Positions 42,001-45,000 of a DNA stretch of 64,000 nucleotides are shown piece after piece. The stretch lies in assembly GCF_022846255.1 (NCBI RefSeq), contig NZ_AP025682.1, one strand, 5' to 3'. Source of the stretch: Escherichia coli (GTDB lineage: Bacteria; Pseudomonadota; Gammaproteobacteria; Enterobacterales; Enterobacteriaceae). Each line of letters starts with the position of its first letter. Positions within the stretch are counted from its first letter, which is position 1. Position numbers: made by a program.

Positions 42001-45000
42001 ATGGCTTTAGTATATTCATCAGGAATACCAATTGTAAAACAAGGTGCGGTATCGGTAGGTAGATTTTCTTTGTTGTCATCATCCAGAACAGAAATAGAAA
42101 ACTGTCGTTCAGGTGTTGATGTCGTGGTTATTAAAATGGTTGGATTAGGAAGAGAAACATATGTTGTCTCATTTTTAGTTTTATTTCTTTGATGTTTTCT
42201 TTGTTAATTTTATCAATCGTTTCAATAGAAAAAAAAGAATCATACCCCATTCGCAGTTCAATTTTATTATCGTTTTCGAATAAATAAATGGCATTATTGT
42301 TTTGAAACAGATTGAATATATTGTTAGCGCAAGTTTGAGTTGCTAGCCAGGATGCCGCTGGATGACTCAAATTAATATGTGTGCTAAAGACTTTGACGCG
42401 ACTACTTCTGTTTTTCTCTTTACTTTCAATTAAATGCCTAGCGCTGTTGGCTGCTTTACAAGTTCCATGCCCCACACGGCAAAAATAATCTCCTGAAAGG
42501 ATACTTACAATCAGTATTACACCAATGACGACAGAAAAAATAGTTCCGATGAGTTTGATGATGACAATCCTTGTGCAGTGTTATTTTCACCATGGATTAT
42601 AATGTTATAGTGAAATTATTGCGCATGTAATTTTTCTCTGATTGTTTTAACATCACATTTATGCACTTCTTCATCTTTGTAGCAGGTAAAAGCCATATAT
42701 GGATGGCTGGTGTCCGGTGCAGATAAAATGCAACTTATTCTTGATAGCTTGAAAAAAAGAGAGGTTTTTTTGAGTGACGGTTGATAGTCGGTGGCAAGGA
42801 AGACGTTTTCGTACACTCGGCAAGAAAAACGAATCACTCTGTCATACTACCAGATACATCAGCAGGGTCAGGTTGCTCAGAAATAAGCAGGATGGGGATC
42901 ACTGAAGAGGCATTTTGGCGATCACAGGAGTCGCATTTGATGGTTAATTTATTGATTTAATGTTTATATTTTGAATTTGATAAATGAGTAACCCCATAAG
43001 TACCCCCAAATGGTTTTGCGTATGGCGTTTGGGGGGATTCCGGGCTACTTTTTCGACTCTTTATTCCACTGTAGCAAACCAGCGATATCCTTCTCGCCTT
43101 CGGCTTCTTTTAAGCGCCGTTGTTGTTCGGCAAACTGAACATACTCCGCCTGCGCTTTTTCATCGGCCATTTTCTTGCTGATTTTACCAGCGCCCTGTAG
43201 AACCTCTCGGTCGTTAAATTGCAGGAACTGATCCAGCTTATCCTGCCAGTCGCGCAAAAAGACTTGCTGACGACGACGGGCCTGATCCTCGGCAAAGTCC
43301 AGCCACATATTAACCACGCGATTAAGTTCGCTGACCTCATCCTGGGTGAGATAATTTTTTGCCACCGTCACGTCGCCCTTACGTACCTCTTCACCTTTAT
43401 AACTGGTCAAGCCCATGTGCGGCTGGCTGGCATCTGCTCGTTTGTGGATGAGTTCCGCAGCGGTATGCCCGGTACAGGCAAAATGCAGTTTATTCTGGAT
43501 GGTTTGAAAAAATTGCGTGGTTTCTTTAAGCGATGGCTGATAGTCGGCAGCTAAAGCAAAGATCTCCCGCACCCGCAAATATACCCGACGCTCGCTGGCG
43601 CGAATATCGCGGATGCGTTCAAGCATCTCATCAAAATAGTCGGGCACAACCGATGAACCGACAGGCGGATTCTTCAGCCGCTCATCGTCCATCACAAAAC
43701 CTTTGATCAAGTATTCCTGAAGCGTCTGGGTGGCCCACTGGCGGAATTGCGTGCCTCGAGGCGAGCGAACGCGATAGCCGACAGCGAGAATGGCTTCGAG
43801 GTTGTAATGGTCTATCTCTCTGGAAACCTGACGTTTTCCTTCCTGGCGAACTATCCGGAATTTCCGGATGGTTGAGTTTTGAACAAGTTCACCTTCGGAA
43901 AATATATTGATTAAATGTTCGTTAATAGTGCGAACATCTTTATCGTACAGTTCAGCCATTGCCGCCTGAGATAACCAGATTGTGTCTGACTCAAAGCGAC
44001 ATTCAACACGCACTCTTCCGTCACCGCTGGCAAACATAATAAACTCGCCTGCTGGGGGCTGGGTTAAGTCTTTGTCTGACATGTCGCCTCCGAAGGAGTG
44101 TTGTTGACGTCGGGAGAGTTCAGTAGAGGCATTTTGGCGGAAGATCACAGGAGTTGAACCTGCCCGGGACCGCTGGCGGCCCCAACTGGATTTGAAGTCC
44201 AGCCGCCTCACCGGAGACGACGATCTTCCGCGCCTCGATTGCTACATGGAGGCGGGGCGCATTATAGCTACTTCCTTGAGTTTCTACATCCCCCAGATCA
44301 GTTTTTTCCGCCTAATACACGCAGCGTATTATCACGAAAACATTATAGTTCATATAAAACTCATATTTTACAATGATATATGAGCGAAATTAACGCTACC
44401 ACGATCACATAAAACAAGAATCATAAATTAATAACCAGATATCGGAATATTCGCTCTCGCAGGGATGGTTTACAAAATGCGTTATCGGTCTCAGCACCCC
44501 TATAGCATCAAGGAAAAGCAGATGAAGAGTGAAGTGTTGTCCGTTAAAGAGAAAATTGGTTATGGCATGGGAGACGCCGCCAGCCACATTATTTTCGATA
44601 ACGTAATGTTATATATGATGTTCTTTTATACCGATATTTTTGGCATTCCTGCCGGATTTGTCGGAACCATGTTTTTGGTCGCTCGTGCACTGGATGCGAT
44701 TTCCGATCCTTGCATGGGGTTGTTGGCCGATCGAACGCGCTCTCGCTGGGGTAAATTTCGTCCGTGGGTACTGTTTGGCGCACTGCCATTCGGGATCGTC
44801 TGTGTACTGGCCTATAGCACGCCAGATCTCAGTATGAACGGAAAAATGATTTATGCAGCAATTACTTACACTCTACTTACCTTACTTTATACCATCGTCA
44901 ATATCCCTTACTGCGCATTGGGTGGTGTAATCACCAATGACCCGACTCAGCGTATCTCGCTGCAATCCTGGCGTTTTGTGCTGGCGACCGCGGGAGGCAT

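Follow-up and report, generated by a model that had tools for sequence, protein, structure and literature searches.

A probable relic of a second, long-diverged rhuM gene behind an attR-type repeat at selC in Escherichia coli

What is the short open reading frame (ORF) that lies behind the intact rhuM gene at the selC locus of Escherichia coli, and how did a second rhuM-like sequence come to be there? The question arises from a window of 64,000 nucleotides (nt) of contig NZ_AP025682.1 (RefSeq assembly GCF_022846255.1), that is, the whole stretch of DNA that was analyzed. The selC hotspot is the insertion site of LEE, SPI-3, SHI-2, and PAI-I. In the window, the order on the minus strand from high to low coordinates is selC (44135..44229), the intact rhuM (43045..44082, hereafter the resident rhuM), an ORF of 73 amino acids (aa; 42616-42837), an AT-rich stretch with a gene here called hyp, and yicL (40878-41801), and yicJ is located on the opposite side of selC from rhuM. 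Comparison of the sequences suggests that the fragment is very probably a non-functional remnant of another, long-diverged rhuM gene (rhuM'), with the history proposed below. It amounts to an ordinary pseudogene, located at a well-known hotspot of integration, and does not represent a new kind of system.

The 73-aa ORF was present as described in the sequence-only reading, on the minus strand with a GTG start, and contained the DYQPSLK, YKxEEV, and DV motifs noted there. It matched residues 166-245 of RhuM in BLASTP (32/80 identical, E=1e-13), and a local DNA alignment between the relic and the resident rhuM scored 120 against 24.8 ± 3.7 for shuffled sequences (z=25.9), so that the alignment also passed the proposed shuffling check. 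These results indicate that the similarity to RhuM is real. The homologous segment (42628..42841, minus strand), which was delimited by BLASTP, DNA alignment, and PF13310, corresponds to codons ~162-244 of the 345 in the intact gene and to PF13310 positions 98-171 of 252. The surviving part is therefore mid-protein and not the C-terminal third, as had been thought; the last ~100 residues are absent, and tblastn detected nothing matching the last 100 or the first 160 residues of RhuM. The G+C content is 36-40% in the relic vs ~51% in the resident rhuM.

Two indels have disturbed the reading frame. Alignments and translations revealed a frame-shifting 1-bp loss in a T7 homopolymer (42752..42758, minus strand; A7 on the plus strand), and the junction of a 35-bp internal deletion, equivalent to 43431-43465 of the resident rhuM, was aligned to 42710..42711 (minus strand). 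Because the two losses together remove 36 bp, the ORF stays open. The RhuM-like stretch FFQAIKNKLHFICTGH, which lies between both indels, sits in another frame, and ~16 middle residues of the 73-aa ORF are read out of the RhuM frame; the ORF is thus a frame hybrid. Identity to the resident RhuM, previously put at about 50%, was 40% as read and 64% (38/59 codons) after frame correction. Frame correction yielded no different intact gene and raised the PF13310 score from 17.0 bits, which is below the gathering cut-off of 33.7, to 35.4 bits, just above it. On these alignments, homology to the RhuM family is certain; the reading as a protein is not.

The fragment lacks an intact RhuM domain: only 74/252 positions are left, the frame is shifted by the 1-bp loss, 35 bp are deleted, and the sequence is truncated at either end. 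By the same coverage, it falls short of a full-length match to the PADLOC family PDC-S05; the PADLOC scan itself took in only the resident RhuM (match over residues 1-343). With so few domain positions and a frameshift, the relic cannot fold or act as a RhuM protein. The sequence-only reading had recognized a gene remnant with a deleted 5' part, and the 5' loss amounts to at least 161 codons (~485 bp). The figure of roughly 600 bp given for it is only one possibility, as whole island interiors have been lost in related loci. That reading, although right in outline, had missed the two internal indels, the connection to hyp, and the 3' truncation, which removed ~100 codons and extends into the next gene.

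The position of the relic relative to the tRNA gene is informative about its age. The integration target selC (tRNA-Sec) was identified by ARAGORN and by Rfam RF01852 (82.6 bits). A degenerate direct repeat of its 3' end, here called DR' (42892..42933, minus strand), consists of CGACTCCTGTGAT, a 4-bp gap, and CGCCA, then AAATGCCTCT, and then ~14 nt of conserved post-selC sequence. The DR' core (42906-42933) corresponds to the last 20 nt of selC and the next 10 nt, with 26/30 matching and the 4-bp gap, and it scored 41 vs 15.8 ± 2.1 for shuffles. Against the selC/attL side of strain Nissle 1917, the gapped match to post-selC sequence reached 42892 (score 56 vs 18.2 ± 2.5). DR' is 68 bp upstream of the 73-aa ORF, in agreement with the earlier estimate of about 65 bp.

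On the other side of DR', a 21-nt motif, CATTTGGGGGTNCTTATGGGG (42992..43012, minus strand), lies 83 nt before the repeat core and forms a single site in the window vs 0.01 expected by chance. The motif was found in 9 of the 100,044 species genomes scanned, and 8 of these, all Enterobacterales, had the repeat core at the same spacing; the ninth match (L015, Niabella) was without the repeat. The arrangement of motif, 83 nt, and selC-type repeat was identified in Enterobacter, Yersinia, Trabulsiella, Lelliottia, Yokenella, Pseudocitrobacter, E. coli, and Salmonella-type loci (motif loci: L008, L009, L011-L014, L016-L019). Two Salmonella-type loci, including L009, carried genes in the order DUF932, RadC, CbeA, CbtA, DUF5983, DUF4942, rhuM, motif, and repeat. 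The conserved order of rhuM, motif, and repeat across loci therefore marks the right end of a selC-integrated CP4-like island. DR', a direct repeat of the tRNA 3' end adjoined by this island-type right-end sequence, constitutes the attR-type junction of the element to which the intact rhuM belongs. As a separate observation, the repeat copies were mostly preceded by ATCAAATGCGA, and many lacked 1-4 nt of CTTCC. The motif itself might be an arm site for an integrase or Xis.

Since DR' lies exactly where selC islands carry attR, the fragment should predate the insertion that brought the intact rhuM, and the DNA beyond DR', including the fragment, would have adjoined selC before the rhuM element arrived. 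The window holds nothing but rhuM in the interval from selC to DR', with no cognate integrase between the repeats, although the Nissle 1917 island sharing the same DR' has one. The ~43 nt directly 3' of selC (44092..44134, minus strand) match the left end, or integrase side, of the Nissle 1917 selC island; the integrase comes next in Nissle 1917, whereas in the window this arm directly abuts the ribosome-binding site of rhuM. The direct joining of the arm to the ribosome-binding site suggests that the element with the intact rhuM has lost its interior.

Other selC loci display the same parts in different states of completeness. In Nissle 1917, selC is followed by the integrase and 18 kb of cargo, after which come the 3' stub of a diverged rhuM, the motif, DR', and the fragment known from the window; M70 has DUF4942, the motif, DR', and the fragment. 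Both loci support the view that the DNA beyond DR' adjoined selC before the element arrived. In Enterobacteriaceae bacterium B14 (L014), an island right end with its repeat precedes the arm, an integrase stub consisting of the Arm-DNA-binding domain (PF13356, E=8.7e-21), a deletion junction, and rhuM. In E. coli E69 (L013), a repeat and the arm precede the 3' stub of DUF4942, which is followed by rhuM, the motif, and DR'; next come an arm of the K-12 type and the opening 14 codons of a further rhuM. Whole island interiors, from the integrase through DUF4942, were thus lost between the att repeat and rhuM in related loci. It was also observed that E69 has at least three stacked selC-type repeats, the third followed by the K-12-type arm and the 14 rhuM codons; non-tRNA sequence precedes the first, and another island is therefore located upstream of it.

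The 3' end of the relic is fused to a second decayed gene. The hyp relic (41979..42620, minus strand) lacks codons 1-16 of a 230-aa homologue and has a stop and a frameshift near its 5' end; in the window, its product is cut short at 114 aa by another 1-bp loss, which lies in a run of A. In relatives, RefSeq annotates hyp as a 165-aa 'hypothetical protein' from an internal GTG, and the in-frame upstream continuation is transmembrane-like and without a start codon. The 230-aa homologue (P0157, 72% identical) is encoded on Logan contigs L020 and L021. The 165-aa protein is therefore probably the tail of a 5'-decayed gene for a 230-aa, membrane-anchored protein. No match of hyp to Pfam, NCBIfam, or PADLOC was detected. 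In the window, hyp homology starts at 42620 (hyp codon 17) and rhuM homology ends at 42628, and these adjoining ends suggest that a single deletion took rhuM' codons ~245-345 together with hyp codons 1-16.

Contigs L020 and L021 are Escherichia whittamii-like, because their flagellin lysine-N-methylase clusters with E. whittamii proteins. On them, a heavily decayed rhuM remnant, including its stop, abuts the start of the intact 230-aa hyp, and yicL follows; the remnant covers RhuM residues 140-203 and 276-345 and has in-frame stops. The flagellin lysine-N-methylase gene (FliB_C) is the selC neighbour in E. whittamii (L023 9796-11475; L020 1-1505), and a 1.4-kb block of rhuM remnant and hyp lies between the methylase gene and yicL in the L020/L021 lineage and is absent from L023.

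Based on these results, we propose the following history. Initially, the interval from selC to yicL would have held rhuM' and hyp as a unit of two genes. An element that targets selC and belongs to the P4-integrase/CP4-like island family may then have integrated there, with the now-intact rhuM as the last gene before its right end. Its integration would have left the attR-type repeat DR' and displaced the older DNA, with rhuM' in it, by one unit from the tRNA gene. The rhuM' gene may subsequently have eroded through a 5' deletion (at least codons 1-161), the 35-bp internal deletion, the 1-bp loss, and the 3' deletion that would have taken codons ~245-345 together with hyp codons 1-16, and the incoming element would have lost everything between its left arm and rhuM. 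Both the order of these events and the origin of rhuM', from an earlier complete island or an older chromosomal module, are to be read in this conditional sense.

As to that origin, the fragment might be the last gene of an older, once-complete island stacked at selC and not part of a chromosomal rhuM-hyp module, which would refine the history proposed above. Stacking with interior loss and survival of rhuM is directly visible in L014, with its integrase stub, and in E69, and the DR' core is followed by ~14 nt of arm sequence, as such an origin would have it. However, rhuM' is followed by hyp and then yicL without a right-end motif or att repeat, and the rhuM-hyp pair of the E. whittamii-like contig likewise has neither. 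We consider an older island possible and hold it only tentatively.

Several observations weigh against the proposed history. First, no third att repeat or right-end motif was found between the fragment and yicL at up to 3 mismatches, and an older complete island therefore cannot be demonstrated. Second, a spacer of ~50 nt between DR' and the relic (42842..42891, minus strand) showed no significant match to arm sequences; alignments to the Nissle 1917, K-12, and window attL sides stop at ~42892. Third, the E. whittamii-like remnant belongs to the resident type, at 82% identity to the resident rhuM and only 60% to the fragment over 89 nt, which makes simple orthology with the fragment doubtful. 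Fourth, no intact close allele was recovered in three large searches for a full-length one, as recommended in the sequence-only reading: among 5.8 billion proteins, a word-indexed search matched fragment ORFs of E. coli and nothing else, a HMMER scan of 1.84 billion cluster representatives gave none closer than the resident RhuM clade (best full-length match P0017, 46% identical), and a peptide-pattern scan of the 100,044 species genomes detected no relative. The parent lineage is therefore inferred and not observed. Separately, the idea that the spacer keeps the start codons of rhuM (EQPDPAD vs TQPPAGE) was dropped, as local alignment gave no significant extension past the arm.

The E. whittamii-like remnant differs from the resident rhuM at 5/4/7 sites by codon position, which resembles neutral decay. 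In the three-way comparison over the 89 nt, 23 changes were unique to the fragment, 8 to L020, and 3 to the resident gene. This result suggests that the rhuM lineage behind the fragment was a distinct and more diverged one, likewise linked to hyp.

The relic might still be suspected of coding for a small protein that functions, such as a shortened piece of RhuM with a regulating or neutralizing effect on the intact RhuM. In favour of this idea, the 73-aa ORF is open in the window, AR_0017, and Nissle 1917, and it is also called as a hypothetical protein (cluster P0001, 57 member sequences). However, the T run is T6 with an extra A in the ST131 and M70 alleles, so that the GTG ORF ends there after 33 codons; the RhuM-like segments of these alleles are spread over three frames. 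The out-of-frame middle residues and the few remaining domain positions described above likewise argue against a functional product, as do the promoter/terminator and Rfam scans of the region, which gave no excess of promoter-like sites and matched selC (tRNA-Sec) only. We therefore consider a functional product very improbable. Reading-frame conservation was judged from five alleles, and the frame is not conserved among these carriers; together with the disrupting indels and the truncation relative to intact homologues, this identifies the fragment as a pseudogene. Over 226 bp, the relic of the window differs from that of ST131 by 2 indels and by 6 substitutions (2.7%), vs 0.43% in yicL, although this is a small sample.

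The divergence between the two rhuM sequences indicates how old their separation is. Over the 59 frame-corrected codons, the relic and the resident rhuM are 68% identical in nucleotide sequence, and the differences at codon positions 1, 2, and 3 number 15, 9, and 32, respectively; synonymous sites are saturated (pS 0.78) and pN is 0.19. The third-position bias and the saturated synonymous sites suggest that most of the divergence built up while both genes were under purifying selection, and the parent was thus a long-diverged functional allele and no recent duplicate. Two rhuM-like sequences in the same orientation and ~750 bp apart could also have been produced by a recent tandem duplication of the resident rhuM and fast decay of one copy. 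Such decay, however, would have spread the differences evenly over the codon positions, and the low identity, the excess of changes unique to the fragment in the three-way comparison, and the att repeat standing between both copies also speak against it, so that this origin is contradicted and very improbable. The sequence-only reading had likewise favoured an old paralogue over a recent duplication. Gene conversion between the relic and the resident rhuM was also rejected, as just one ST131-specific change moves towards the resident sequence. Finally, the short length and the low G+C content of the region (36-40%) are all that favours a chance likeness of a spurious AT-rich ORF to RhuM, which the BLASTP E-value, the z-score, and the frame-corrected Pfam score above its cut-off render practically untenable.

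The relic is widely carried among E. coli. The 2.5-kb arrangement of selC, rhuM, fragment, and yicL was found in 843/5,426 complete E. coli genomes (megablast, at least 80% coverage), and the 401 bp around the fragment in 1,102/5,426, for example in Nissle 1917, UTI89, and ST131. No RefSeq feature was annotated over the fragment in the 40 records listed. These results provide an annotation correction, in that the rhuM relic is present without annotation in ~1,100 complete genomes of E. coli, and a readable layer-by-layer history of the selC hotspot; the relic reveals no new mechanism.

Further observations concern selC and the cargo of related islands. The selC T-loop at window position 44150 reads GGTTCAACTCC here and GGTTCGACTCC in the other E. 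coli loci examined, including the rhuM-bearing AR_0017 and ST131, and the selC of Klebsiella aerogenes also carries the T-loop A. The difference is presumably a neutral purine change at tRNA position 57. Its use as a co-transfer marker of the rhuM element was rejected, because the rhuM-bearing E. coli L001 and L003 have G. In K. aerogenes (L006/L007 4895-7038), the genes after selC are, in order, one for a DUF6680 protein, one for a SymE-type toxin, and a 94%-identical rhuM without motif or repeat after it, which is another layout keeping rhuM near selC. The Nissle 1917 selC island (L010 31309-49200) contains the integrase, an 'ABC-three component system', a WYL protein, and a GTPase, followed by an inovirus Gp2-like protein, DUF932, RadC, and YeeU/CbtA, and then by a frameshifted AAA ATPase, a retron-type HNH endonuclease, and DUF2441. 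This defence-rich cargo fills the slot that holds only rhuM in the window.

The intact counterpart of the relic belongs to a known family. The resident RhuM (345 aa) matched PF13310 (E=4.5e-118) and PDC-S05 (PADLOC, E=2.8e-173) and is annotated in RefSeq as 'virulence RhuM family protein'. Its orthologues are 88-94% identical in Klebsiella aerogenes, Citrobacter, Enterobacter, Kluyvera, Raoultella, and Serratia. A PDB sequence search with RhuM gave no significant match, and none of RhuM, hyp, and the fragment was covered by an NCBIfam model. Anantharaman et al. (PMC3710099) proposed a role for RhuM-like proteins as toxin domains that act alongside restriction-modification and PrrC systems. At least five selC loci that were rearranged independently of one another (the window, E69 with two modules, K-12 yicT, L014, and the E. 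whittamii-like contig) have kept rhuM, either intact or as the last piece to decay. As a speculation that we consider unlikely, RhuM might be selectively retained while the remainder of each island disappears, for instance because it works as an addictive gene of a toxin-like or defence type, and stacked copies or relics might then serve as homology anchors for swaps of selC cargo between strains.

Three known systems are close to this locus. The first is RhuM of Salmonella SPI-3, with PF13310 and the PADLOC candidate defence family PDC-S05. The parent of the fragment was likewise a RhuM-family member, and in a Salmonella locus, as in the window, no further gene stands between rhuM and the right-end motif with its selC repeat. 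The relic differs from the family in being frameshifted and reduced to 74/252 domain positions.

The second is yicT of E. coli K-12 (b4653; L005, MG1655, 2895-3095), which we identified as a rhuM remnant covering RhuM residues 121-187 (tblastn E=4e-19), with 61% amino-acid and 75% DNA identity to the resident rhuM. This annotated K-12 pseudogene is now linked to the RhuM family. It was formed by a deletion from the post-selC arm into rhuM codon ~120, and comparison with E69 places the apparent junction at a shared GCTT. Like the fragment, yicT is a short internal rhuM remnant beside selC. However, it lies directly 3' of selC with no att repeat between and stems from a resident-type allele, whereas the fragment lies behind a displaced selC repeat, covers residues 162-244, and represents a much more diverged allele. 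Therefore, yicT and the fragment in the window are not the same relic.

The third is the tandem accretion and decay of tRNA islands, as known for CP4-like elements with a P4 integrase at selC. The window departs from such arrays in that it has no integrase left and its older unit is without a recognizable right end, but it shares with them the repeat of the tRNA 3' end, the right-end motif, and the remnants of successive tenants.

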